Shown: positions 7,800 through 52,870, numbered from the stretch's first letter. The stretch is DNA of 64,000 nt from Minisyncoccales bacterium (GCA_049302755.1 JBAQMK010000004.1:36392-100391), one strand, 5' to 3'. Notes: generated by a model not told the origin, from the sequence alone. Made by a program: numbers and translations.

Positions 7800-8765
7800 T
7801 TAACTTTTCTTGGCCACCAATAATCCGTGAACTTTTAACGGCTCGTAAATTAATCTATATTCAGTGAAGCCAGCTTTTTTGGCAACGTCGCCTAAACCTT
7901 CCGGACGACGATAAACCATTGGCCAGTTAATCACCCATTTCAAAAAATGCTGTTCGATATTCGGATGGATATTGCAAGTGATTAAAAAACCATTCGGCTC
8001 CAATATGTCTCTAATCTTGCTAACTACGGAAATCGCCTCTTCTTGACTGATATAATCCAAAAACCCTATCATCTCGACTATTTGCGGTTTGAATTCGCGA
8101 CACAAATCGAACATATCGTAAATGCTTCCTTTATACATTTCTATCTGATCTTCCACTCCATAATGCTTGGCAAACACTTTGGCTCTCTCGATCGCACCGC
8201 CGTCAATATCTACAAATTTTGCCCTGATAATTTTGTTTTTAGCTTTAGCTTCGGCGATTATTTCAATTGCTGATTCGGCCGAACCGCAAGCCAACGATAC
8301 AAGCCTTATCTCCCCCCCTTTATCTACTTTTGAAACAGCTTTACTTAATTCATCTTTGATAAGCTTAAGGCGATTACGAAGCCCCTGGCAATTCAATCCA
8401 AACCAATAAAAATCATCGAGTAATCCGCCGAGAGTTCTTTTAGGAGGATATGGATGATTATAAACTATTTCCATTGCTCTCCAGGTGGTAGCGTATTCTT
8501 TCACCTTTCTACTTTCTTTTCCTAGTCCATCAAAAAAAATAGAATTTATTTTGGGTTGTCCCAGTCCGAGCATTTTATAAACCTGCTTCTTAAGCATCAC
8601 GTAAAAAGTAATCAACCACATAAAAGGCAGAGACAAAACATACGGCGCGGGGCAATTTTCATATCGATCACTCCTCACGGTAAGATACGGCTTCTTAATC
8701 GTTTCTATTTCCGGAGCTTTCGGAACCGAAGCAATTTCTATCTTAACAGGTTTTTTATTATGCAT
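7800..8765 (-). CDS. class I SAM-dependent methyltransferase, substrate unknown
   Basis: 321 aa with motif I-like LVSLACGSAE followed by FVDIDG. Has an N-terminal hydrophobic segment. Confidence 0.6.
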   Translation of the reverse strand: MHNKKPVKIEIASVPKAPEIETIKKPYLTVRSDRYENCPAPYVLSLPFMWLITFYVMLKKQVYKMLGLGQPKINSIFFDGLGKESRKVKEYATTWRAMEIVYNHPYPPKRTLGGLLDDFYWFGLNCQGLRNRLKLIKDELSKAVSKVDKGGEIRLVSLACGSAESAIEIIAEAKAKNKIIRAKFVDIDGGAIERAKVFAKHYGVEDQIEMYKGSIYDMFDLCREFKPQIVEMIGFLDYISQEEAISVVSKIRDILEPNGFLITCNIHPNIEQHFLKWVINWPMVYRRPEGLGDVAKKAGFTEYRLIYEPLKVHGLLVAKKS

Positions 8766-8782
8766 ATGTTTATATTAAAATT

Positions 8783-8811
8783 ATTATAACAATTTAGTAT
8801 TTCTTTGTAAA
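8783..8811 (-). promoter_or_regulatory. sigma70-like promoter upstream of the methyltransferase
   Basis: Minus strand reads TTTACA-17 nt-TATAAT, with TGT immediately upstream of the -10 (extended -10). Confidence 0.45.
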
Positions 8812-8821
8812 ACAAAATAGC

Positions 8822-9910
8822 TTATCTCTTAGCATATTGAGAGATATTTAATAAAACTCCGCAAGCGATCAACTCCATCATCAAATGAGAACCGCCGTAA
8901 CTGATAAAAGGCAAAGGAATTCCGGTTAAGGGAACAACTCCGATCATCGCTCCGATATTTACCAAAGTTTGAACAATAAACCAGGAACCGATACCAATCG
9001 CCATCAATCTTAAATATTCATCATTAATTCTTTTTCCTAAAGACAAAGAAGCGATAAAAAAAGCAAAAAATAAAGCGATTAAAACAACGCAACCAATAAA
9101 ACCGGTTTCTTCGGCAAAAATAGCAAAAATAGAATCAGAAATTGATTGCGGAACAAAGCCAAACTTTTGAACGCTTAATCCCAAACCCGAACCGGTGACT
9201 CCTCCCGAACCGACCGAAATCAAAGCTTGATTAATGTGATAGCTAGTTCCTAGAGTGTCGGTTTCTGGATGAAGAAAAGAGGTAACTCTTTTAAGTCTGT
9301 ACGGTTCAGAAAAAATTAATCCGGCAAATCCCACAATAGCGCTCACCCCAATTAATAGCGTTTGTTTAATCGGAGTTTTAGAACAAAAAAACATTATCAT
9401 CATGGTAGAAAAAAGAACAATCAAAGTTCCCATATCTTTTTGGAAATACAAAGCTGCACAAACTAAAACCAAAAGAATAATGAAAGCGGTAAATTTATTC
9501 CTCGCCTTCTCACTATTCAAAATAACGGCCAAATAAATAATGCAGGCTAATTTCATTATCTCCGATGGTTGAATGCTCGTAAAACCCAAATTAAGCCATC
9601 TGGTGGCACCTAATTGAGTCGTGCTCAATCCCGGAACAAAGACTAAAAGCATTAGAATCACCGCGGCAATAAAAATAAGAAAACTCCATTTCTTGATTCC
9701 GTGCAAAGAAATTTTAAAAGCAACAAAAGCCAGAATCAATCCGGGCAGCAATCCCCATAATAATTGATGAAATAAATAGTAATTAGGATTATTGGTCAAC
9801 TTTAATGATAACGGCGTTGATGAAGTAGCCAGGGCTAAAATTCCCATTACAATCAAGAGAATTATAATCACCAAAAGACTTACATCAAATGTCTTCTTTG
9901 CTTTTATCAT
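8822..9910 (-). CDS. ftsW: SEDS-family lipid II polymerase/flippase (FtsW/RodA)
   Basis: 362 aa, polytopic, with C-terminal PLPFISYGGS motif. Overlaps the murD stop by 4 nt. Confidence 0.88.
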   Translation of the reverse strand: MIKAKKTFDVSLLVIIILLIVMGILALATSSTPLSLKLTNNPNYYLFHQLLWGLLPGLILAFVAFKISLHGIKKWSFLIFIAAVILMLLVFVPGLSTTQLGATRWLNLGFTSIQPSEIMKLACIIYLAVILNSEKARNKFTAFIILLVLVCAALYFQKDMGTLIVLFSTMMIMFFCSKTPIKQTLLIGVSAIVGFAGLIFSEPYRLKRVTSFLHPETDTLGTSYHINQALISVGSGGVTGSGLGLSVQKFGFVPQSISDSIFAIFAEETGFIGCVVLIALFFAFFIASLSLGKRINDEYLRLMAIGIGSWFIVQTLVNIGAMIGVVPLTGIPLPFISYGGSHLMMELIACGVLLNISQYAKR

Positions 9911-37329: not shown

Positions 37330-38592
37330 TTATAAAAATCTCAAAAAATAAATAATAAATAACACCGCGGAAGCTATCCACAAACAATAAGCACACTTAA
37401 TATAATAGCTACCCTTTACCCCGCCTTCTTTTTTTCCTTTCCTCCAGGACATATAACCAAGGATAGCAAGGATTATTGCTAAAATAGGCCAAATATTATC
37501 GCCGAACCAAGCAGGAAGCGCTGATGCTAAAGATGCCATATTAAAAGCACTGCTTAATACTTTTTCTTGATTTTCTGTATTTGTTAAATCTTGTAAACCG
37601 TTGCCATCTTCGCCATTTACCGGCTCATTTGAACCAGATTGCCCTCCTGTATTTATCGAAAATCCTCCTGTGACACCACCCGTTGTTGATTGAGAATCAT
37701 CATTTGAATCTTCTCCAATTTCTATTTTAGAATGATCCGCCACGAAACTATATTCTCTTCCAATAGTTGCCGGAGAAGCATGAGAAACAACTCTGTAATA
37801 ATAAGTCTGTCCAAATACTAGATCTGTTAAAGTTACTTTATGAGAAATTACTTTTTCTAATCCAGAATCATCGCCTGATTTATAAAAAGCATAACCAAAA
37901 GATGGTTCACCTTTTGAAAAATCAAAGGTATTCGGTTTGTCGTCATAAATTACCGCACTAGTTGAAGCATAATTTGTTTGCCAAACTATTTCAACTTCAT
38001 TCACATCATTAAAAACTTGTTTACTTAGTTCCCCAGTTATAATTAAACCGGGAGGAAGATCACCTGATCCGCCACCACCGCCACCTCCGCCATAAATAAC
38101 TGTGCCGCCACCGCCACCGGGATTATCGGTTGTACCCTCTCCTTCAAAGCCAACCAGTAAATCAAATCCAACTACCGCGTCTTGGAAAGAATTGTTCGCG
38201 TCTGTATCAAAAGACATCTTAAGATCGTACTGTTCTGTTGAATTATTACTTACTTGAGACAAATCTACTTCACCGGCCGCAAAAAATTCATTCAACGTAC
38301 CGCTGAAAACCACGCTCGCACCATGTTTTATTTCTAAATTCAACTTTTTAGAGAATTCAGACGGATCGCTTTTATTAATAGCTTCAATGATTGCTTTTTG
38401 TTCTCCACCACTCGTATTTGTTATCTTTATAAATCTATCTATCGCGCCACCTGGAACGAATGATGCTTCTTTAAAAAGTGGTGTTTGTTCAAACTGAACC
38501 TCAAGCCCGGCTGAAAACGCCAAACCAGGCATAACTACAAAACCAAATATGATTGCGGAAAACAATGTTTTAAATAATTTCATCTGTTTCAT
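37330..38592 (-). CDS. secreted, membrane-anchored protein: TasA-like beta-sandwich N-domain, Gly-rich linker, FN3-like domain, C-terminal TM segments
   Basis: 420 aa with signal peptide ...PGLAFSAG. FVPGGAIDRFIKITNTSG resembles the family PGD block. Has a GGGGG linker, an FN3-like VEIVWQT...YYYRV region and 2 C-terminal TM segments. Overlaps the upstream gene by 23 nt. Confidence 0.6.
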   Translation of the reverse strand: MKQMKLFKTLFSAIIFGFVVMPGLAFSAGLEVQFEQTPLFKEASFVPGGAIDRFIKITNTSGGEQKAIIEAINKSDPSEFSKKLNLEIKHGASVVFSGTLNEFFAAGEVDLSQVSNNSTEQYDLKMSFDTDANNSFQDAVVGFDLLVGFEGEGTTDNPGGGGGTVIYGGGGGGGGSGDLPPGLIITGELSKQVFNDVNEVEIVWQTNYASTSAVIYDDKPNTFDFSKGEPSFGYAFYKSGDDSGLEKVISHKVTLTDLVFGQTYYYRVVSHASPATIGREYSFVADHSKIEIGEDSNDDSQSTTGGVTGGFSINTGGQSGSNEPVNGEDGNGLQDLTNTENQEKVLSSAFNMASLASALPAWFGDNIWPILAIILAILGYMSWRKGKKEGGVKGSYYIKCAYCLWIASAVLFIIYFLRFL

Positions 38593-40066
38593 TTAATGTA
38601 ATATTATTTTGATCTGTGTTAGCGCCATCAGTGTTTGTGTCTCCTGAATCTTGCGCTCCATCATCTGTTATTTGATTTTCCAATACTATCTCTGGTTCTG
38701 AGTTGTCATCAGTTCCTTCTTCTTGATCCTCTAAAACTAGCGGCTCTTCTGGTTTTATTTCAGCAGTCTCTGGCGTATCGACAACTTCATCAACTCCTTC
38801 ATTATTCTCCTCTTCTTCAATTGGAGGTGTTTCTGATAGCATTAAACTACCTGACGGTTCAGACATTAACAACAAACCATCATCTTGCCCTATTTCCAAA
38901 TCCGGAACATATTCTTTTTCAGCTAATAATTCCTGTTCTCTTTCAATAAAGGATGCTAAATCGGCATCCGATTCGTCTGATAAGTTGCGATCATTTGGAG
39001 TTCCAAGGTTAAATAGATCTGGATGATCCCAATAGGGTCTTGTACCTAACAATTCAAGACAGGTATGCCAGCTTGATTCATTGGCACCATTACCCGGAAT
39101 ATCGTTTCTTTCCATTGAAAGATGGAAGAATAAACGTTCAAAACCGGCAGCGGGCAAACCATTGCCATCGTCCGCTGTATCAATCAAGTTAGAAGAGTTG
39201 TTCCAGTCCGCTTTATATACTTTTATTTGCAAATTAGCATCACGTAAATCAACGTTTGTATCAATTAGATTTGGAGTAATGCTAATTCTAGAATCACTTT
39301 CGCTGAAACGGGATATTAAGAAAAATCCATTTGCCGGAATTACTGTTCCATTTGGAATTGTAAGCATCAAAACTTCTTGTTTAGTGAATCCGTATCCAAT
39401 TAATTTAGTGATTTGAAATCCTGAAATATCCAAATCATATGATGTAGTATTTTTTAATTCTATCCATTCATCTTTACTCTTCAGATAACTACCCATCCAC
39501 ATCAATTCGTTTATAACAATGTCACCCGGATTGATTATCCACTTATCGCTTGTTACGGTAGAAGAAATTCTTTTTTCATCAACAAAACCACCGGAAGTTA
39601 ATCCTTTTTGACTAGCCTTGAAAACTAATTCAAAAGAACAGCTTTTGTTTTGCCACTCGGCGGCATCAGAAATAAGTTCGGCTGAAAATATTTCGCTTGG
39701 CTTTACAGAAAAATCTATTTTATCGGTTAAAAAGCTTGTTAAATCTTGGGGTGTATTAGTTGTATCATCCTTCAAATTCAAATTACTACATAGATCGCCG
39801 GAAACGTTTTCCACACTAACAGTATAAACAAAATCAATTGTGCCAGCTTTTTCTAATTCAATTGTCCTTATACTAGGAACACCTGGTTTTACTTTCGGAG
39901 CAAAATCTGACGAATCCTTTAGATTAATCTTCAATGTTCCGGTTACAATCTTTGATTCCGATGCCTCTGTATCAGAATAATGGGCATACACAGGAAAAAC
40001 AAAAGATAAGCAAGCAATAAAGCTGACTGTCAGGCAAACTATTATTTTGTTTATTTCTCTTTTCAT
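38570..40066 (-). CDS. TasA/camelysin-like secreted protein with lamin-tail domain (LTD) and acidic C-terminal tail
   Basis: 498 aa. N-terminus ...VYAHYSDTEASESKIVTGTLKINLK is a SipW-type signal peptide pattern. LTD-like INELMWMG...DEWIELKNTTSYDLDISGFQI. The last ~130 aa are rich in D/E/T/N. Confidence 0.7.
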   Translation of the reverse strand: MKREINKIIVCLTVSFIACLSFVFPVYAHYSDTEASESKIVTGTLKINLKDSSDFAPKVKPGVPSIRTIELEKAGTIDFVYTVSVENVSGDLCSNLNLKDDTTNTPQDLTSFLTDKIDFSVKPSEIFSAELISDAAEWQNKSCSFELVFKASQKGLTSGGFVDEKRISSTVTSDKWIINPGDIVINELMWMGSYLKSKDEWIELKNTTSYDLDISGFQITKLIGYGFTKQEVLMLTIPNGTVIPANGFFLISRFSESDSRISITPNLIDTNVDLRDANLQIKVYKADWNNSSNLIDTADDGNGLPAAGFERLFFHLSMERNDIPGNGANESSWHTCLELLGTRPYWDHPDLFNLGTPNDRNLSDESDADLASFIEREQELLAEKEYVPDLEIGQDDGLLLMSEPSGSLMLSETPPIEEEENNEGVDEVVDTPETAEIKPEEPLVLEDQEEGTDDNSEPEIVLENQITDDGAQDSGDTNTDGANTDQNNITLNETDEII

Positions 40067-40578
40067 AATGTGGTTTCTTGTTTTTTCGTTTTAATTTCTT
40101 TTCTAATTTGCATTAATTGATCTCCGATAATTATAAATACTGGGACAATGATAATTAAGATAAAGCCAATGGGTTTTTTAATAAAATCAACTACATAACC
40201 AAGGAACGGAATGGAAAATAAAACCTTACCCTCAATTATATTCTTGGAAACTAATGCTTGGTCAACAGAATCATTAGCATCTCCTTTGGTGATATAATAA
40301 GGAACTCCTGAATTGACTTGCATGTCTTTAATTCTATGCGTAGTCGGTATTTGATTTTTGCCAGTTTTCCCAAAAGTGATGATATCACCAATCTTATAAT
40401 CACTAAAAGGTTTGATAACCACTATACTGCCGGTATGAATAGCTGGCTCCATAGAACCGGATAACACAGACAAAACTTTGAAATCACCAATCAAAGAAAA
40501 TGTGGAAAGAATTAATAATACCGCTACGATAATAATAATTCCTAAAATAATATTATATAAATATTCAAAAATTTTCAT
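40063..40578 (-). CDS. sipW: signal peptidase I, ER/archaeal (SipW) type
   Basis: 171 aa with N-terminal TM, SGSMEP Ser box, TTHRI His box, TKGDAND box and a C-terminal TM. ATGA overlap with the next gene. Confidence 0.85.
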   Translation of the reverse strand: MKIFEYLYNIILGIIIIVAVLLILSTFSLIGDFKVLSVLSGSMEPAIHTGSIVVIKPFSDYKIGDIITFGKTGKNQIPTTHRIKDMQVNSGVPYYITKGDANDSVDQALVSKNIIEGKVLFSIPFLGYVVDFIKKPIGFILIIIVPVFIIIGDQLMQIRKEIKTKKQETTL

Positions 40579-40688
40579 TTGGTTGATTTTTATTACCCCT
40601 CTAAAACTTTTATAATCCCTCCCATTTTAAGAATGAGAAGGACTAAAAAGTTTTAAACTTTTACGAAAACTTAATAAGTTTTTCCCGG

Positions 40689-41900
40689 TTATTCTTCTGA
40701 TGCAATAGGAGTATTAGAACAATCAAAGTTTGGATTGTTCCTCCACTGTTCTGCATAAGTTGTTAATGTTGCACTTAAAGTATCTCCTTGTGCCTCATTA
40801 CCAACACTTGAACCGTCACAACTAATAGTGTCACCACTTATTGTTTGTGTACCAAAACACCATGCTAAACCAATATATTGCGTAGTTCCACCCGTAATTG
40901 GAGGTAACCCTTGTTCAGCTAATGCAATATTGGTATCAATTAAATTTCCATTATGTAAAATGGCTTCACCATCTTGATAAGTTCCATTTTGATTAGCATC
41001 ATTCCAGATGATTACATTCAAGTCTTCTGAAATATCTTCGTCAACATCGTCTGACTTTTTAGCATAGAAACAAGACCAAGCGTCATTGCCGTTAACATGT
41101 ACGCTGATCAAATTAGTTCCGTAATCACCAGGCTTAACATCATCAAAGTCAAAGAAAGTATCACCTTCTACTAAATCTTTGGCTTGCCAAAGTTTACAGT
41201 TAGTTTTGAAATAATCATCACCACAATTACCATTAATTGTGAACTTGTAGATTAGTCCAGCAGGATTTGTCTGATAATTACTGCCTGCTACACCCTTATT
41301 TGTAACTACAAATTTCAAAATATTAGTTCCTTGAATGAAATAAGATGGATTAACGACAATAGAATCAGCAGAAGAATAATTAAATTCTCCGGGATCCTGA
41401 CCAAGTGGATTTCCGTTTAAATAAACTTGGTAACCGTTATCACTAGCCAATGCTAAATTAAGAGTAGCTCCGTTAATTTCTCCCATCCACTCAAAAGTGT
41501 TCTGGAAACCGTAGCTAGTATTAACTTGAGTATCCGCTTGTTGAGTTTGACTACTTTCCCAAATCCATTTAGCTTCACCAGTAGGATCAAATACGGCTGC
41601 TTTTAACCAAACAGGGTGTACCCAAGCTAGAGCTGCTGAATACGGAGTTTCTACCGCTACGCCATTTTTTTCCACTACCATGTCATGACCATCAGAACTA
41701 TATACCTCAACACTACAGGTCTTACAATCCATAATACCGTAGGTCTGTTTTAGATGATCAATTTTTAAATTCATTGTTCCGGCCACAATTATGTTGCCAG
41801 CAGAAGTTTGTGTATCATTGAAATAAGCAATTGTACCGCCGATAGCAATCAGCGAAACAAGAGCAATCAAAGAAACACTAGTTAAGATTTTTTTATTCAT
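40689..41900 (-). CDS. TasA/camelysin-like secreted protein with inserted lectin-like beta-sandwich module
   Basis: 403 aa. Has GGTIAYFNDTQTSAGNIIVAGTMNLKI. FFDFDDVKPGDYGTNLISVHVNGNDAWSCF and GDTLSATLTTYAEQWRNN align with the 260-aa paralogue. An insert of about 150 aa lies between these blocks. Confidence 0.75.
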   Translation of the reverse strand: MNKKILTSVSLIALVSLIAIGGTIAYFNDTQTSAGNIIVAGTMNLKIDHLKQTYGIMDCKTCSVEVYSSDGHDMVVEKNGVAVETPYSAALAWVHPVWLKAAVFDPTGEAKWIWESSQTQQADTQVNTSYGFQNTFEWMGEINGATLNLALASDNGYQVYLNGNPLGQDPGEFNYSSADSIVVNPSYFIQGTNILKFVVTNKGVAGSNYQTNPAGLIYKFTINGNCGDDYFKTNCKLWQAKDLVEGDTFFDFDDVKPGDYGTNLISVHVNGNDAWSCFYAKKSDDVDEDISEDLNVIIWNDANQNGTYQDGEAILHNGNLIDTNIALAEQGLPPITGGTTQYIGLAWCFGTQTISGDTISCDGSSVGNEAQGDTLSATLTTYAEQWRNNPNFDCSNTPIASEE

Positions 41901-41947
41901 ATTTTTCGTCTCTTTTAAACTTTTCTAATTTCTAATTAAAAATTTTA

Positions 41948-42730
41948 TTATTCTACAGGTTCACAAGTATAACTTGCATTATTTCTTGATTGAACTGCGG
42001 TAAAAGTAATATCTCCCTGGATGCTGTCTCCTTGAATTTCATTTTCTACATCTGCAGGAACTGTCCATTTTACTCCAATACAAGTCTTATCTAAAGGATC
42101 ATCACTTCCAGGAATCGGTTGTCCGCCATTTTGGCTGTCAGCAATCGCCCAGCTTAATTCACTAGCCGGCTGATTAGTAACAACAACGGTTTCGGTATCA
42201 TCTAAATCATTCTCACAATCAGAATCTCTCCAAACTGTGAAAAGTAAATTATTTTTTAATTCACCTGTTGTTTCAGTTTCACAATCAGAATCATCTTTCA
42301 TTTCCGCGTTATTAGCACAACCATTCTCTTTGGCCTCTAAATTAGAAATAGAAGCACAAACCCAGGCTGGGTTGTTGTTAATATGTAAACTGATGGTGTT
42401 TTCTCCTACATCGCCCGGTTTGACGTCATTATAATTAAAAAATAAATTATCTGAGGTAAGTGATTTTGCTAACCAAGTACAAGAACAAGCTGTTCCAATC
42501 ATGCTTGGTTCAGCAACTGTAGTTGATTCATCTTCATCCGCTGCCCATAAATTACTAGCACAGATCATGCCATTGTAATGGCAAGTACTACCAACCTCTA
42601 AAGATAAATTGCCCGCTGTAATTATATTGCCGATACTAGCTTGTGTACTAGTAAAATAAGCTGCTGTTGTTCCAATACCAATAGCAGCAACAACTGCAAT
42701 AATACCTAAACTAACTAATATTTTATTCAT
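41948..42730 (-). CDS. TasA/camelysin-like secreted protein (candidate major subunit)
   Basis: 260 aa with GTTAAYFTSTQASIGNIITAGNLSLEV, FFNYNDVKPGDVGENTISLHINNNPAWVCA and C-terminal IQGDSIQGDITFTAVQSRNN. About 11 Cys. First gene of the operon. Confidence 0.75.
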   Translation of the reverse strand: MNKILVSLGIIAVVAAIGIGTTAAYFTSTQASIGNIITAGNLSLEVGSTCHYNGMICASNLWAADEDESTTVAEPSMIGTACSCTWLAKSLTSDNLFFNYNDVKPGDVGENTISLHINNNPAWVCASISNLEAKENGCANNAEMKDDSDCETETTGELKNNLLFTVWRDSDCENDLDDTETVVVTNQPASELSWAIADSQNGGQPIPGSDDPLDKTCIGVKWTVPADVENEIQGDSIQGDITFTAVQSRNNASYTCEPVE

Positions 42731-42837
42731 GTTATTAAATTATTATATATCCTTATTGAACTTACCGACCTTTTAGGTTTTTATACACACTGTTTCCAGC
42801 GTGGAAAGAACTCAAAACTAAACCCCATAAAACAAAC

Positions 42838-42865
42838 GAACGAACCCCATTCGCGGAATCCGTTC
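42838..42865 (-). promoter_or_regulatory. terminator-like hairpin inside the 5' leader of the TasA-like operon
   Basis: Minus strand reads GAACG GATTCC GCGAAT GGGGTT CGTTC, which gives about 11 bp including G-U pairs, followed by GTTTGTTTTAT. Lies about 105 nt upstream of the ATG. Confidence 0.4.
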
Positions 42866-42943
42866 TTTAACACTAAGTTATAGATTGTATCTTGTTTTGC
42901 CTATAATTCATAAATAATAAATCTATCCATGACTTCTGCCTAA

Positions 42944-42972
42944 ATATTAAAGACTTTAAAAACTTTTGTCAA
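42944..42972 (-). promoter_or_regulatory. sigma70-like promoter for the TasA-like/SipW operon
   Basis: Minus strand reads TTGACA-17 nt-TAATAT. Implies a leader of about 200 nt. Confidence 0.45.
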
Positions 42973-43098
42973 ATCTGAGTTATGCACATGCATTTTATGA
43001 TATAAATATATAATATTGTCAAATTACAAACTTTTTCAAATTTTAAACCATAATTTTTGGTTAAAAATATTTCAAATTAATTAAAATGATTTATAAAT

Positions 43099-46752: not shown

Positions 46753-49700
46753 CTATTTAATATTAAAGTATTTGCTTTTTTCAACCTTAGTTGAAGCCTC
46801 TCTTTCGGCTAAGCATTCTCTCTCTTTTTTTCTTTCGATTAAAAGATACATTACGATAATACATAGGATTAAGAATAACAGAGTTAGTAATCCAGCATAA
46901 GCCTGTAGATTAACTAAAGAAATCAATCCAGCACCGGCTTCAGCACCTCTGATTACATTAATAGTTGCAGTTCTCTTAACTGTATCAGCACCCTTAGCTG
47001 AAACTTCGATGGTGTTGATTAATTCATTAGAACCGTAGCTAAAGCTGCTTACATCATCAACCTTTCCTTTGAAAGTAATGACTTTTGATTCGCCTAAAGC
47101 AATTGTTCCAATATCCATATTAAGCGATAATGAACCACTGTATGATTGATTATCAATCTTAATATCGTTAATAGCAGTAATCTTGTCAGAAACAATAGTT
47201 TTCAAAACAACATTTTCTAACAATTTTGTTCCGGTAGAAGTAATGATAACTCTAAACTCTACCTCATCTTTTGGATTTGCAGTGATTGAATTCTGCCAAG
47301 CAGTTTCTTTTTGAGTGACATTACGAACCAATCCTTCAAGAGAAATTTCTGCCTTGGTCGGAGTTACAACCGGTACGTATCCGCCAGTGGTATAAGCTCG
47401 AGAGTATTGAGCGTCAGAATATGAATACATTCCTTCGTCGCAACCAACAGCCCATGCTTTGTAGTAATACCAAACATTATTAGCTAAATTGCTATCAACA
47501 ACAGATGAACCTGTTCCGTAATAAACAACTGTGCCGTCGGCAGAATTGTTCGGATAGCTTCCTGTTTTTCTGGTAACGATTGTGTAGCAAGAAGAAGCAC
47601 TCTTATTCCAGTTCAATGAAATCTGGTTGCTTCCGGCGGCAAGAGCGGTAAAACCTGTTACTGCATCCGGCTTAGTTACAAAAGTAACATCTTGTCCGAC
47701 AACAGTCTCTCTTCCGTTTGAAGCTTCGGCTCTGAAGTGGTAAGCTTTTCCTTTTTCTAATCCAGAAACATAGTAATCAAATGTCTGGCCGGTATATCTA
47801 TTAGTAGTCCAAGGAGTAGAATTACTGTATGAAGAAAGTCTTCCCCAGTTAAATCTAACCGATGAATACTGTCCTCCGTCGTTAGTTAAGATTCCATTCA
47901 AAGTTGCTGAAGTTGTTCCAACAACCGGAGTGTTGGTTGTAACCGCTAATCCGTTTGAATAACCTGAACCATAATTTCTAACCACGATATTTACCGTGTC
48001 AGAATTGCTGTATCCGCGAGAATCAGTTACGTATAAAGTACAAGTGTATGTAATATCTGAATTAACTGAAGGAGCGTAGTAAGTAGGATTCAATGAGTTT
48101 GAATTAGACAAACTTCCACCGTTACAAGACCAATATTGATTTAAAGAATATCCGTATTGGCTGTATGCATATCCGTTCAAAGTTGTTGATTGATTTTCCT
48201 GAATATCCTTATTTGTGCCTGCATCAACGGAAATACCAGAATATGTATTTTGTCCGCCAACAACAATTGTAGCTTGGGCATAAGCAACGTATCCGCCTCT
48301 TTCAACTTTTACTTTAGCGGTATATGTACCATCATTGTAGTAATTACACATATCATAAGCGGTATAGTTTGTGTTGTTTGAATTTGCTACGATATCCCAT
48401 GAATTATCATTTTGACAATCAAATCTATAAATAACAGGATAATCTGACAAACCAATACTATTAACGTTTGCTGTTAAATCTACTCCATTCAAAGGAGCTG
48501 ATCCTGATGACGGACTAGCTGACAAGCTAACATTTAATTCCGGTGAAAACCATCCACCATTATTAACTGTTACCATCACAGTATCGCTACCAGTATATCC
48601 TTTATTATCTCTGGCAGTTAGCGTACAAGTATATGATGTTGTTGAGCTAACTGAAGGAGCGTAGTAGGTGGTTGATAAAGAATTGTAGTTAGATAAACTT
48701 CCACTGGTGCATGACCACGCGTAAGTCATTGGATCGCCCTGAGGGTCGTTAGCATAACCAGATAAAATAGCATTTCCTCCGCTGGTAACTGAAATATTTG
48801 AACCAGCTTCAACTGTTGGATTTTCGTTACTATTACCACTGTCTATTACTGTAACGTTCATAGTATCGCTACCAGTGTGTCCACTATTGTCTCTAGCAGT
48901 TAGCGTACAAGTATATGTTGTAGTTGAGCTAACTGAAGGAGCGTAGTAAGTAGGATTCAAAGCAGTAGAACTAGATAAACTTCCACCTGTGCATGACCAT
49001 GTATAAGTCATTGGGTCACCTTGAGGGTCATTAGCAGAACCTGATAAATTAACAGAATTTCCTTCATTAACGGTTACATCATTTCCAACATTTGCAGTTG
49101 GATTTTCACTAGGATTACCAGTATTTACTACTGTAACACTCTTAGTATCAGTATCGCTATTTCCTTTATTATCTCTAGCAGTTAACGTACAAGTATATGT
49201 TGTAGTTGAGCTAACTGAAGGAGCAGAATATGTAGGATTCAAAGCAGTAGAACTAGATAAACTTCCACCTGTGCATGACCATGTATAAGTCATTGGGTCA
49301 CCTTGAGGATCAGTTGCTGTAGCTGAAAAAGCAACAGACTGTCCTTCGTTAACGCTAATATCTGAGCCAGCATTAACTACCGGATTTTCATTTACAACAG
49401 TATTTGAAATGTTTGCAAAGAAGGTTACGTGACCTTGTGATGGCCATCCTCCGGCAATACTTCCGATATTAACCTGAACACTGTTTCCGTTGTTAGTAAC
49501 CGGAATCATTGTGCCTCCTGATGTTGATTGGTTAGGAAGCCATCTGGCAGTGTTTTCAAAAGTAATAGACTGAGAAGAAGTAATATTAAGGGTTGCTGAA
49601 CCAGAAACCTGGGCAGCGTTGTCGGCCCATAAAAGTCCAGAAAAAACCTTTTGTGTGCCGGCTGATGTGCTCGGTACACTTACTTTCACTTTTGTGTTGG

Positions 49701-49962
49701 TAGCATTTGTGCCATCAACAGTGTTGTGGTAATAAACATCAATTGCAATTCTGTCTCCGGTCTGACCAGTAACTGAACTTGCCCAGCTGTATGTTCCGGC
49801 TGAAGTTGTAGAATTACCGATTCTTACCGTATCTAAATCATTGCTAGCATTGTTGAATTGAGGAACAGCAGCAATAGCGCTATTAACTCCAACAAACAAT
49901 ACAGAAACTAAAGATAAAAGACTCAAAACTATCGAACTATAAGATACTTTTATTGTATTCAT
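46753..49962 (-). CDS. large repeat-rich surface protein (signal peptide, PKD-like repeats, FN3-like domains, C-terminal TM anchor)
   Basis: 1069 aa with N-terminal signal peptide. Contains three ~94-aa repeats plus one degenerate copy, FN3-like LNWNK.../YYYKAWA, and a C-terminal hydrophobic helix followed by ERKKERE. Confidence 0.8.
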   Translation of the reverse strand: MNTIKVSYSSIVLSLLSLVSVLFVGVNSAIAAVPQFNNASNDLDTVRIGNSTTSAGTYSWASSVTGQTGDRIAIDVYYHNTVDGTNATNTKVKVSVPSTSAGTQKVFSGLLWADNAAQVSGSATLNITSSQSITFENTARWLPNQSTSGGTMIPVTNNGNSVQVNIGSIAGGWPSQGHVTFFANISNTVVNENPVVNAGSDISVNEGQSVAFSATATDPQGDPMTYTWSCTGGSLSSSTALNPTYSAPSVSSTTTYTCTLTARDNKGNSDTDTKSVTVVNTGNPSENPTANVGNDVTVNEGNSVNLSGSANDPQGDPMTYTWSCTGGSLSSSTALNPTYYAPSVSSTTTYTCTLTARDNSGHTGSDTMNVTVIDSGNSNENPTVEAGSNISVTSGGNAILSGYANDPQGDPMTYAWSCTSGSLSNYNSLSTTYYAPSVSSTTSYTCTLTARDNKGYTGSDTVMVTVNNGGWFSPELNVSLSASPSSGSAPLNGVDLTANVNSIGLSDYPVIYRFDCQNDNSWDIVANSNNTNYTAYDMCNYYNDGTYTAKVKVERGGYVAYAQATIVVGGQNTYSGISVDAGTNKDIQENQSTTLNGYAYSQYGYSLNQYWSCNGGSLSNSNSLNPTYYAPSVNSDITYTCTLYVTDSRGYSNSDTVNIVVRNYGSGYSNGLAVTTNTPVVGTTSATLNGILTNDGGQYSSVRFNWGRLSSYSNSTPWTTNRYTGQTFDYYVSGLEKGKAYHFRAEASNGRETVVGQDVTFVTKPDAVTGFTALAAGSNQISLNWNKSASSCYTIVTRKTGSYPNNSADGTVVYYGTGSSVVDSNLANNVWYYYKAWAVGCDEGMYSYSDAQYSRAYTTGGYVPVVTPTKAEISLEGLVRNVTQKETAWQNSITANPKDEVEFRVIITSTGTKLLENVVLKTIVSDKITAINDIKIDNQSYSGSLSLNMDIGTIALGESKVITFKGKVDDVSSFSYGSNELINTIEVSAKGADTVKRTATINVIRGAEAGAGLISLVNLQAYAGLLTLLFLILCIIVMYLLIERKKERECLAEREASTKVEKSKYFNIK
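48559..49389 (-). repeat. three tandem ~282-bp coding repeats (PKD-like modules) with near-identical ~130-nt cores
   Basis: Protein residues 192-468: ENP..N.G.D..V.EG.S...S..A.DPQGDPMTYTWSCTGGSLSSSTALNPTY.APSVSSTTTYTCTLTARDN. DNA cores such as gataaacttccacctgtgcatgaccatgtataagtcattgggtcaccttgagg recur verbatim in two of the three copies. Confidence 0.85.
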
Positions 49963-50950: not shown

Positions 50951-51790
50951 CTACTCTGAATCACACTCAGATCCTATCTTACAGATATTAGTTTTGTTGC
51001 CGAACCTCAAATCTATATACTTTAAGCTGTTTAAATCTCCAGCATATTTCCCATCATTCAAAACAATACCTAATTTCTCGATTTGCCAATCTAAATCGGC
51101 ATATCCCCTATCTTCTCCGATATAAAAAATAATTTCGCAAGACAAAACAGTCTGAATAATCGTTTTTGTCTTATAAATATCAAAATTATTGATATTGATG
51201 GAATATTTAGTAAGTCCTTCTTTGATTTTAGACAAATTTTCTAAAACGTTTTTTTTGTCAATATTTTCAATCTCTTCTTTTTGATTAATCTTAATTAAAG
51301 AAGTATACTCTTCCCTATCTTCAAAATTTTTAATATAACTTCCATTCTTGTCAATTAAGTATTTTTTTGCATCATCGAAACTATCGGTCCAAACAGCATA
51401 GGGAGTCTTTTCCACTATTTGCAAAGAAACCCCGTTAGGAAAATCCTTTTTGACTGTAATTTTTTCTATTTCCGGAAAAGATTCCATTAAATCATTGACT
51501 CCGTTTCCCATCGAAAGAAAAATACTCTCCGTGCTGATATCAAATCCCAATAAAGAAAATGAAGTTTTAAATTTTTCTCCGGCGGCTTTTTCTAAGTCTT
51601 CGGTTAAAATATTATTATTTCCGCTGATATTAAGTTCTGAAACTTGAAATCTCGGAGAAAACAATAAAAAACCGGCTGCCGACAAAACAATAATTGAAGC
51701 AAAAATGGAAAAAGAGAAATAAAAATTAGTGAAGATGCTTTTCTTTCTTCTTTTCATTGTTCTCCTTTTTGCTTTTATTCTTCTTTTCAT
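50951..51790 (-). CDS. ftsQ: cell-division protein FtsQ/DivIB-like (POTRA)
   Basis: 279 aa with a basic N-terminus, one TM segment and a POTRA-like RFQVSELNISGNNNILTEDLEKA. TAATG overlap with the upstream gene. Confidence 0.65.
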   Translation of the reverse strand: MKRRIKAKRRTMKRRKKSIFTNFYFSFSIFASIIVLSAAGFLLFSPRFQVSELNISGNNNILTEDLEKAAGEKFKTSFSLLGFDISTESIFLSMGNGVNDLMESFPEIEKITVKKDFPNGVSLQIVEKTPYAVWTDSFDDAKKYLIDKNGSYIKNFEDREEYTSLIKINQKEEIENIDKKNVLENLSKIKEGLTKYSININNFDIYKTKTIIQTVLSCEIIFYIGEDRGYADLDWQIEKLGIVLNDGKYAGDLNSLKYIDLRFGNKTNICKIGSECDSE

Positions 51791-52809
51791 TATAGGTGGC
51801 GTTTTCTTTTTCTTAATTCTTCAAAAATATAAGTTAGCCAATATATCGGAGATAAAATATAATCCTGGGTTTTGACATACTGTTTTTCGCTCCCTCCGAA
51901 TCCTTTTTTGAATAAGCTTAGTCCGGCCCAGGGATGGTTCTTTTCCGATTCCGGAATCACTCCCCAAAAATTATATATCTCCGCTTCTCTTTTTTTCGCT
52001 TCTTTGATCGCTTCCCACTGTAATAAATACGAAACCGGAATCTTAGCATATTTAGAAGACGAAGCTCCCTGATGATAAAAAGCTCTTTTACTCCAATAAA
52101 CAATCATTGCCGAGGAAACCGTTTCCCCTTTGTATTTTCCAGAAAAAATAACAATCTCATTATCATTTTTAAAAGCATCTAATTCCCTTTTCAGATATTT
52201 AGGCGGAAAAGGGGTGAAAGAATGCCTACCTGCGGTTTCAAGATAAACCCTTTCGAATTCAGCCAAATCTTTTTCGTCCATACTTTTGACAATTTCCACG
52301 TCTGGATTCTTTTCGGCCTGCTTAACCAAATATCTGGTTGTTTTTCTCATTCCTTTCAATAATTCATCTTCAATAGGAATAAGATTCAATTCCCAAGTTA
52401 ATTCAGGATGCATATGAATCGGAGCATTTCTAAAACCTAATTCTTTAAACATTTTAACATTTTCTTCATTCAATGTGAAGACAGGACTAAAACGGATAAA
52501 GCTGGCTTTTTCCTTTAATCCTAATTCTTTTAAATAATCAAGTAGTGTTTTTACAATCTCCTTATTGTCGCCCGATAAAATTACCGGACCATGAGGAACA
52601 AAAAGAAAAGTACCTCTTTTGGCTTTGATTTTAATAATCTGCGCTACAGCAATCAATTTTTCATTATCAAATATTCCGAATCGGTATACCTTATCCCCCA
52701 TTGATTGATTGAATTCTCCCCAATTAAAAGACTGGCAAAAAGTCTTTTCAACGCAATTCAAAAGGAAGTCCTCCCATATTTTCTTTTCGCTTATCTCTTT
52801 GATTGTCAT
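51790..52809 (-). CDS. FemAB-family peptidoglycan interpeptide aminoacyl-transferase (FemX/MurM-like)
   Basis: About 339 aa counted from ATG 52807-52809. Has FCQSFNWGEF N-terminus and a FemAB-like duplicated GNAT architecture. Confidence 0.75.
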   Translation of the reverse strand: MTIKEISEKKIWEDFLLNCVEKTFCQSFNWGEFNQSMGDKVYRFGIFDNEKLIAVAQIIKIKAKRGTFLFVPHGPVILSGDNKEIVKTLLDYLKELGLKEKASFIRFSPVFTLNEENVKMFKELGFRNAPIHMHPELTWELNLIPIEDELLKGMRKTTRYLVKQAEKNPDVEIVKSMDEKDLAEFERVYLETAGRHSFTPFPPKYLKRELDAFKNDNEIVIFSGKYKGETVSSAMIVYWSKRAFYHQGASSSKYAKIPVSYLLQWEAIKEAKKREAEIYNFWGVIPESEKNHPWAGLSLFKKGFGGSEKQYVKTQDYILSPIYWLTYIFEELRKRKRHL

Positions 52810-52870
52810 TATTGTATTATATTCAAAAATTAACAAAAAAGCAAAATAAAAAAAGGATTAATTCCATATA

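Follow-up and report, generated by a model that had tools for sequence, protein, structure and literature searches.

A SipW-type signal peptidase cassette with TasA-like proteins in a Minisyncoccales bacterium: a candidate membrane-anchored fiber or adhesin system of Patescibacteria

The five-gene cassette

The window analyzed here, a stretch of 64,000 nucleotides (nt) from a Minisyncoccales bacterium (GCA_049302755.1, JBAQMK010000004.1:36392-100391), contains a cassette of five co-directional open reading frames (ORFs) on the minus strand (37330-42730), which encode, in this order, protein A, protein B, a SipW-type signal peptidase, protein C, and protein D. An earlier note on this DNA, made from the sequence alone, had read the locus as five co-directional genes forming a SipW operon with TasA-like substrates, and all five ORFs were found on the minus strand where that note had placed them. 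The tight packing it described was likewise confirmed; the stop codon of the peptidase gene and the start codon of gene C share an ATGA (40066-40063), and genes C and D overlap by 23 nt when D is taken from its first ATG, or by 14 nt if Met4 (the second ATG) is the true start. The features of the cassette are given below, with lengths in amino acids (aa), the extents of signal peptides and post-cleavage residues being predicted, and the supporting evidence in brackets.

42944..42972, minus strand: promoter-like site TTGACA-17-TAATAT upstream of gene A (consensus scan only)
41948..42730, minus strand: gene A, 260 aa, minimal TasA-like subunit (TIGR04088, AlphaFold2 model, PDB matches)
42659-42730, minus strand: signal peptide of A, residues 1-24
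42599-42658, minus strand: conserved post-cleavage stretch of A, residues 25-44
Within gene A, minus strand: cysteine-rich jelly-roll core, residues 45-260
40689..41900, minus strand: gene B, 403 aa, TasA-like subunit (TIGR04088, family profile)
41193-41753, minus strand: lectin-like or carbohydrate-binding-module-like domain of B, ~190 aa, residues 50-236 (PDB lectin matches of the family profile)
40063..40578, minus strand: endoplasmic reticulum (ER)/archaeal-type (SipW/Sec11-like) signal peptidase I, 171 aa (TIGR02228, motifs, hydrophobic segments)
38570..40066, minus strand: gene C, 498 aa, TasA-like protein with a lamin-tail domain (PF12389, LTD)
Within gene C, minus strand: SipW-type N-terminus, residues 1-50, and TasA-like domain, residues 51-175
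38972-39529, minus strand: lamin-tail domain of C, residues ~180-365 (LTD, PF00932)
Within gene C, minus strand: acidic tail, residues 366-498 (32% Asp+Glu); C lacks a membrane anchor of its own
37330..38592, minus strand: gene D, 420 aa (hhalign to the C family, AlphaFold model, Pfam)
Within gene D, minus strand: ordinary signal peptide, residues 1-28
38143-38508, minus strand: TasA-like beta-sandwich of D without an N-terminal donor-type stretch, residues 29-150
37738-38046, minus strand: FN3-like domain of D, residues 183-285, preceded by a Gly-rich linker, residues 151-182
Within gene D, minus strand: second linker, then C-terminal hydrophobic segments, residues 361-381 and 396-420

The signal peptidase

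The third gene of the cassette encodes a signal peptidase I of the ER/archaeal type, as had been proposed from its motifs. The product matched the archaeal-type signal peptidase I model of NCBIfam, TIGR02228, well above its cut-off (110.8 bits against 51.85; E 5.5e-32; residues 5-155, model length 158 positions). The boxes SGSMEP, THRI, and KGDAN begin at residues 40, 80, and 98, respectively, and hydrophobic (membrane) segments lie at residues 1-39 and, toward the C-terminus, 125-159. Box D has His, not Lys, and we take Ser42, His81, and Asp100 to be the catalytic residues from what is known of the family. The score against the Bacillus SipW equivalog model NF046067 (110.9 bits) fell under the cut-off of 190 and, judged by sequence, the peptidase is a member of the SipW/Sec11 family and not an orthologue-level match to Bacillus SipW.

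The TasA-like proteins A, B, and C

Three of the neighboring proteins begin, as the earlier note had it, with a hydrophobic segment, the only one in each protein, followed by a motif of the SipW-cognate type: AYFTSTQASIGNIITAGNLSL in A, AYFNDTQTSAGNIIVAGTMNL in B, and AHYSDTEASESKIVTGTLKI in C. The camelysin/TasA assignment found partial support in profile searches, in which A and B passed the cut-off of TIGR04088, the model of the SipW-dependent-type signal peptide (cut-off 19; A 19.4 bits; B 30.5 bits, E 2.7e-7), and C passed that of Peptidase_M73 (PF12389; 23.3 bits, cut-off 22.5, residues 25-80). The SipW-type motif of C was recognized by eye and by the C-family profile. PF12389 gave no match to A at E<=0.1; it is precomputed on most of 50 database homologs of A, one of which carries the NCBI name 'TasA family protein [Patescibacteria group bacterium]'. 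The family was found in 23 of 25 B-family members, with the match on B itself spanning residues 3-49, and in 11 of 27 C-family members. The DVKPGD block and the C-terminal QGD...A(V/E)Q block, which had been described as shared by all three proteins, are present in A and B, whereas C has only degenerate forms of them (KVKPGV and FELVFKASQ).

From an alignment of 48 sequences, AlphaFold2 gave a model of A with a predicted local distance difference test (pLDDT) score of 81.5, the values being above 90 in the core and below 50 in residues 18-33. When this model was compared with 350,542 PDB chains by Foldseek, the two leading entries were the TasA fiber 8AUR_A at rank 1 (probability 1.0, E 5.4e-5) and, at rank 2, the TasA monomer 5OF2, every later match having an E above 0.02, in support of the TasA/camelysin family membership suggested before. 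Neither A nor B nor the A-family profile had any match when searched directly against PDB sequences, and the connection with TasA emerged only through Foldseek and hhalign, the latter of which aligned the A-family profile with Bacillus subtilis TasA (80% probability) over a span that runs from the signal peptide through the PGD block. We regard A as the candidate major subunit.

The closest homolog of A (positions 8001-9791 of locus L001, the nearest relative of the window cassette) is 596 aa long and 83% identical over 256 residues, and carries a ~340-aa C-terminal extension of repeated Cys-containing units of ~55 aa (GxCG...FPAQGGxTxWxC...), which is lacking in the window protein. Many A-like ORFs at other loci reach 450-700 aa. 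Given this extension and these longer ORFs, the C-terminus of A-type subunits seems open to add-on modules.

The TasA chain in 8AUR begins at Ala28 (AFNDIKS), and the hhalign register sets the motifs of the window proteins on TasA residues 28-46. The strand that TasA donates to the following subunit consists of residues 28-38, and self-complementation of the monomer is provided by residues 48-61; in the proposed assembly of TasA, a subunit that has been complemented sets free its own strand, which then invades the following one (PMC9674648). By alignment with the mature N-terminus of TasA, SipW would cleave A, B, and C after T-x-A, that is, after Ala24 in A (TTAA|YFTST), Ala25 in B (GTIA|YFNDT), and Ala28 in C (PVYA|HYSDT). 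Across the families, the Thr at -3 and the Ala at -1 vary little or not at all. Conservation in the A and B families peaks in the first 20 residues after the predicted site (consensus YF-x-D-T-E-x-S-x-G-N-x-F-x-A-G), with 3.6 bits per column compared with 2.5 elsewhere, a degree of conservation that exceeds what a signal peptidase normally needs on the prime side. In A, a stretch that is both conserved and modeled with low confidence is consistent with a donor strand, short of proof.

The accessory modules of B and C

Protein B carries a lectin-like module, as had been claimed, inserted ahead of the DVKPGD core, which it separates from the N-terminal stretch. The B-family profile matched the PDB lectins 6KBJ, 6T1D, and 6T0Q (E ~5e-4) as well as the carbohydrate-binding region of the rhamnosidase 3W5M. 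In relatives, the same insertion point is occupied by DUF642, MAM, a GH2 sugar-binding domain (GH2_N), or PA14, from which the site appears to take interchangeable jelly rolls of carbohydrate-binding type. The B-family alignment (columns ~60-345) holds two unrelated jelly-roll modules at this one point: a lectin/rhamnosidase-like type with KWIW...DNxYxVxLNG, to which the window B belongs, and a DUF642/MAM-like type with LAELD...GGYLDD. This pattern suggests module swapping at a permissive loop of B.

The lamin-tail module attributed to C is also present, with LTD (PF00932) matching residues 180-290 at 41.5 bits (cut-off 34.3). The domain was found in 26 of the 27 proteins at the C position in relatives.

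Protein D, an anchored TasA-type domain

The heading of the earlier note had counted four substrates in the cassette, although its text gave the SipW-type N-terminus to three neighbors, and we reduce the number to these three (A, B, and C), as D has an ordinary signal peptide and is without the conserved N-terminal stretch. No SipW-type N-terminus and no TIGR04088 match were found in D, nor a PF12389 match at E<=0.1, and PF12389 occurs in only 1 of 22 D-family members. The N-terminal domain of D is nonetheless homologous to that of C; in an hhalign comparison of D with the C-family N-domain, 113 columns were aligned at 97.4% probability (E 1.1e-11), and the C-family hidden Markov model (HMM) finds D at E 5.4e-8. 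This alignment starts at position 14 of the C profile, directly after the AYYNDTExSxxN stretch, such that D lacks ~13 residues which are the counterpart of the TasA donor strand. A model of residues 1-300 of D (pLDDT 72) matched 8AUR_A (E 1.1e-5, target-normalized template modeling score (TM-score) 0.44), with TasA at rank 5.

The FN3-like module that had been noted in the cassette belongs to D, which matched Pur_ac_phosph_N (PF16656, FN3-like) above its cut-off (35.3 bits against 30, residues 198-283), as do 18 of the 22 D-family members. An exhaustive search with the D domain alone returned 938 cluster representatives, 469 of them at E<=1e-10, and features of the family were counted in the best 150 of the 938 (131 of these are >=330 aa). 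In this set, the core motif lies at a median position of residue 41 and none of the best 150 has a donor-type motif upstream of the core; an A-x-A-type signal peptidase site stands 2-4 residues ahead of the first core strand in the D family. Among the 131 longer proteins, a C-terminal hydrophobic segment occurs in 127 and a poly-Gly run in 96. Given its homology to the domain of C, the absent stretch, and the C-terminal segment, D is a conserved TasA-type domain without the N-terminal stretch, carried on a flexible stalk with a membrane anchor.

Recurrence of the cassette in relatives

A single A-family peptide pattern was found in at least 329 species-representative genomes, and the locus counts given here rest on the best 80 of the 329. 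Most of these 80 loci bear Patescibacteria-type names, and a minority come from third-party assemblies labeled otherwise. SipW lies downstream of one to four TasA-like genes in 65 of the 80 loci. Where more than 4 kb of downstream sequence was available (n=42), a C-like gene abuts or overlaps SipW in 30 and a D-like gene is present in 32. The order of one to four TasA-like genes, SipW, C, and D thus recurs across Patescibacteria, and the check on synteny put forward earlier turned up the same gene order in dozens of other genomes. In L001, the closest relative, the same five genes stand between the same flanks with 83-87% protein identity. Together with the E values of the peptidase (5.5e-32) and of B (2.7e-7), this gene order in dozens of genomes places the observation far beyond chance.

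In-frame fusions of SipW with a C-like protein, joined via a charged linker and a membrane segment, occur at nine or more loci (L026, L035, L037, L043, L047, L064, L071, L072, and L073; ORFs of 474-560 aa). These fusions retain the T-x-S/A|YF motif and link the peptidase directly to its TasA-like substrate class. Upstream of the second membrane segment, the fusion linker shows a motif that recurs, MMDI/MMEIxxPV. C-terminal extensions were also seen in further long SipW ORFs, at L014, L021, L023, L029-L031, L045, L052, L056, and L078.

The suggestion of a reduced genome of the candidate phyla radiation (CPR) type agrees with these relatives, the closest being a 655-kb complete chromosome and most related loci having Patescibacteria-type names. 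The 'Ca. Saccharibacteria' label on L001 may be approximate. The same cassette also appears in third-party co-assembly metagenome-assembled genomes (MAGs) labeled Gammaproteobacteria, Bdellovibrionales, Desulfobacterales, Pseudomonadales, or archaeon (L025, L036, L040, L044, L046, L053, L061, L074, and L078). As the cassettes in these MAGs resemble those of the Patescibacteria-named loci, the deviating labels look unreliable.

Relation to known systems

The pairing of SipW with a TasA-like protein is already known, and its presence in Patescibacteria has been noted before; the phyletic survey of Wang et al. 2022 (PMC9245690) recorded PF12389 homologs in the phylum. In the literature searched on TasA, SipW, or camelysin in CPR, Patescibacteria, Saccharibacteria, and Parcubacteria, this phyletic remark was the only mention. 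The earlier statement that no characterized TasA-type fiber was known from such lineages therefore stands as far as that literature goes, with the qualification that homologs had already been reported (PMC9245690). No description of the five-gene layout, of D, of modular subunits such as B and C, or of the SipW fusions was found in the literature searched.

One locus (L012) is the start of contig 1 of Candidatus (Ca.) Microsyncoccus PMX.50, in which the gene just upstream of SipW encodes a B homolog (46% identity, E 4e-105). Table S4 of Kuroda et al. 2024 lists PMX.50_00004 as sipW and PMX.50_00208 as lepB (PMC10936435); given that this genome also has lepB, SipW is an additional, dedicated peptidase. 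PMX.50_00003 ('galactose-binding domain fold') is listed among the five secreted proteins of unknown function whose expression in Ca. Microsyncoccus PMX.50 is highest (PMC10936435), and from the gene order we infer that it is the B homolog.

[quoted passage not shown] The differences are considerable, however. Sequence identity is only 10-14%, the SipW equivalog cut-off is missed, the host is a Patescibacteria bacterium with a reduced genome, and housekeeping genes flank the cassette. Where the Bacillus operon combines TasA with the unrelated TapA, the window cassette has four paralogous proteins, whose lectin-like, LTD, and FN3 modules are a further difference, and a membrane-anchored, acceptor-only D has no counterpart in Bacillus. 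No Pfam or NCBIfam match pointed to TapA, with no TapA-specific comparison having been made, and C is a possible functional analog of TapA.

Outside Firmicutes, the bundling pili of the archaeon Pyrobaculum calidifontis (AbpA/AbpB) are likewise built from a TasA-superfamily subunit, there assembled by donor-strand complementation (PMC9245690), and as in the window there is a larger accessory protein, proposed to be a fiber initiator or adhesin (PMC9245690). An archaeal TasA homolog was shown to form donor-strand pili (PMC9245690, Wang et al. 2022); the archaeal operon, however, lacks a dedicated SipW and uses a generic peptidase, no membrane-anchored, acceptor-only subunit has been described for it, and the window proteins are much nearer in sequence to bacterial PF12389 than AbpA is.

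The proposed strand-exchange chain of specialized subunits also shares its logic with chaperone-usher pili (the PapH terminator and the FimH tip adhesin), in which adhesin-bearing subunits are joined by end subunits that can make only one of the two contacts and so define the chain ends or the anchoring. Those pili, which belong to diderm bacteria, share no ancestry with the window system and are periplasmic and usher-dependent, and the end subunit of the window cassette differs from theirs in having no donor strand and in being itself an integral membrane protein. In its architecture, finally, D resembles the Enterococcus WxLIP proteins (DUF916-DUF3324-TM; 9I1Y; PMC10599100), which also consist of a signal peptide, two beta-sandwiches, and a C-terminal membrane helix and are proposed to hold secreted partners at the surface by beta-strand insertion (PMC10599100). 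WxLIP occupied Foldseek ranks 1-3 for the D model, yet with TM-scores of only 0.21-0.26 and a root-mean-square deviation of ~18 Å, and no Pfam match to DUF916 or DUF3324 was found in D or any of its 22 relatives. The partners of WxLIP are WxL proteins, not TasA-like ones, and the WxLIP anchor is predicted to donate a hairpin, unlike D.

Proposed mechanism and alternative explanations

We propose that the cassette encodes a SipW-processed fiber or adhesin complex of the Patescibacteria cell, held together by donor-strand exchange and tied to the membrane by D as an acceptor-only subunit, a reading to which we assign a probability of roughly 0.6. The 20 residues bared by cleavage would be donated as a strand to the following subunit and complete its beta-sandwich, in the manner of TasA residues 28-38. 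Protein A would form the fiber shaft; B, displaying its lectin-like module, and C, with its lamin-tail domain and acidic tail, would be adhesive or initiating subunits. With a groove-bearing domain, no donor strand, and a C-terminal anchor, D would take up the final free strand, which would fasten the fiber to the membrane, and perhaps end it there, on a flexible stalk of Gly linker and FN3-like domain. Since D could accept a strand and not donate one, it would stand only at one end of a chain. In a TasA-like order of assembly, a strand-bearing initiator would start the chain and D would capture its last strand at the membrane, with C as a possible initiator because it is translationally coupled or fused to SipW. 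The opposite order, in which the fiber grows from D outward by addition at the distal tip, may apply instead. The likely use of such a structure would be attachment to host cells or surfaces.

Several points weigh against this proposal. The family memberships, the domain architectures, the missing stretch in D, the synteny, and the fusions are shown or strongly supported, whereas polymerization is argued by analogy. Strand exchange also has competitors as the function of the conserved post-cleavage stretch, which could instead act in folding or in recognition by SipW. Profile evidence is close to threshold in places, with A barely clearing the TIGR04088 cut-off, B falling just under that of PF12389 (21.2 bits against 22.5), and C having no TIGR04088 match at E<=0.1. 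The TM-scores to TasA are modest for the models of both A (0.37/0.41) and D (0.35/0.44), and generic two-domain Ig/FN3 proteins and WxLIP outrank TasA for the latter; as a two-domain model draws such generic matches, the Foldseek ranking of D is less specific than that of A. Without its N-terminal motif, the core of A matched the C and D profiles at probabilities of only 2.4% and 0.4%, and the full-length profiles of the D and A families aligned at 13% probability, confined to the last strand, so that the superfamily link between the cores rests on predicted structure.

The main rival to a fiber is that the four proteins are SipW-processed surface adhesins that do not polymerize, each being secreted and kept at the surface singly or as a small complex, for example with one subunit docked on the membrane-anchored D, and acting through lectin, LTD, or FN3 modules. 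We consider this unlikely, although it draws strength from several observations: the adhesin-type modules (lectin, LTD, and FN3) are real, D resembles WxLIP, a membrane-anchored two-domain holder of secreted partners, in architecture and in Foldseek rank, and monomeric TasA is stable and self-complemented (PMC9674648), with no filaments observed directly. It explains less well why a donor-type stretch is retained in two to four paralogs per locus as their most conserved part, when one-to-one docking on D needs no multiple strand-bearing paralogs, and A, without any adhesin module, is hard to account for as a stand-alone adhesin. A layer or matrix that surrounds the cell in two dimensions, in place of discrete anchored fibers, would fit with the bundling of Bacillus TasA fibers into a matrix (PMC9674648), with the extracellular material at the attachment sites of related cultured Patescibacteria, and with the high expression of the B homolog. 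The absence of any detected lattice-forming family and the presence of an acceptor-only, membrane-anchored D, which suggests point attachment of linear chains, make this arrangement improbable.

The names of the matching models invite two further explanations. PF12389 is called Peptidase_M73, 'Camelysin metallo-endopeptidase', by which the proteins could be secreted camelysin-like (peptidase M73) metalloproteases; the matches, however, extend no further than the first strands that follow the signal peptide and the N-terminal stretch, and the closest structures are the non-enzymatic TasA fiber and monomer. As the HExxH motif is absent from A, B, C, and D alike, we rejected the protease reading, which we hold to be very improbable. 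The JGI label 'predicted ribosomally synthesized peptide with SipW-like signal peptide', attached to homologs P0001, P0010, P0012, and others, would make the proteins precursors of ribosomally synthesized peptides. This label is merely the name of the signal-peptide model, the cassette contains no modification enzymes and has housekeeping flanks, and proteins of 260-498 aa with confidently predicted globular beta-sandwich domains are far from such precursors; on size and predicted fold, this explanation was also rejected, and we give it next to no credence.

How ultrasmall, host-dependent Patescibacteria recognize and hold their hosts is a central open question, and to our knowledge only type IV pili have been supported experimentally in their host attachment so far. 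Tentatively, and with odds that we would set somewhat short of even, the anchored fiber proposed here may represent a Patescibacteria-wide second adhesive filament besides type IV pili, a SipW-processed, strand-exchanged TasA-type fiber with lectin-bearing and lamin-tail-bearing subunits, capped and tied to the cytoplasmic membrane by D and used for attachment to bacterial or archaeal hosts. If so, anchoring and termination by a D-type subunit would be a solution that has not been described for any TasA-type system. The cassette is likely to be a core surface structure of Patescibacteria given its wide spread, its housekeeping setting in a small genome, and its high expression in one relative that parasitizes an archaeon. 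For work on TasA more generally, the cassette would offer a natural division of labor in assembly between a shaft subunit, two subunits that bear modules, and an anchor that only accepts, with SipW-substrate fusions in addition, and such a dissection makes fiber polarity, nucleation, and anchoring directly testable.

Genomic setting

The intergenic region before gene A extends over 368 nt (42731-43098, minus strand) and is 92% identical to its counterpart in L001 (7634-8000), with conservation highest from the TTGACA hexamer onward. The upper limit that the earlier note had set for the locus, 42972, falls on this first hexamer of the promoter-like TTGACA-17-TAATAT site. The implied leader of gene A is ~210 nt long and includes a 12-bp stem-loop followed by a T-run at 42838-42865. 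No Rfam match to the leader was found even at E<=1, and the folding z-score was only -1.6, so the idea of a riboswitch or attenuator was dropped.

The neighbors of the cassette are housekeeping genes. One flank has an MgsA/RarA-type AAA+ ATPase and a large ORF resembling a class-I aminoacyl-tRNA synthetase, and the other an Obg-like GTPase (the last two recognized by eye). No further TasA-like or SipW-motif protein, and none related to A-D, was found in the rest of the 64-kb window. Another candidate surface protein is encoded ~4 kb upstream of the cassette (46753-49962, minus strand); it is 1069 aa long and contains several repeats of the PKD and bacterial Ig-like types. A FemAB-family protein (51790-52836) and an FtsQ-type POTRA protein (50951-51790), also encoded on the minus strand, fit a monoderm, peptidoglycan-containing envelope, which bears on how the membrane-anchored base of a fiber would span the wall.

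Across the 64-kb window, no tRNA or Rfam RNA gene was found, the GC content is ~36%, and the minus strand carries almost all of the long ORFs. Of the 32 2-kb bins, 31 have a negative GC skew (the remaining bin having +0.008), and the skew and the ORF orientation are consistent with a location within one replichore, with genes co-oriented with replication.

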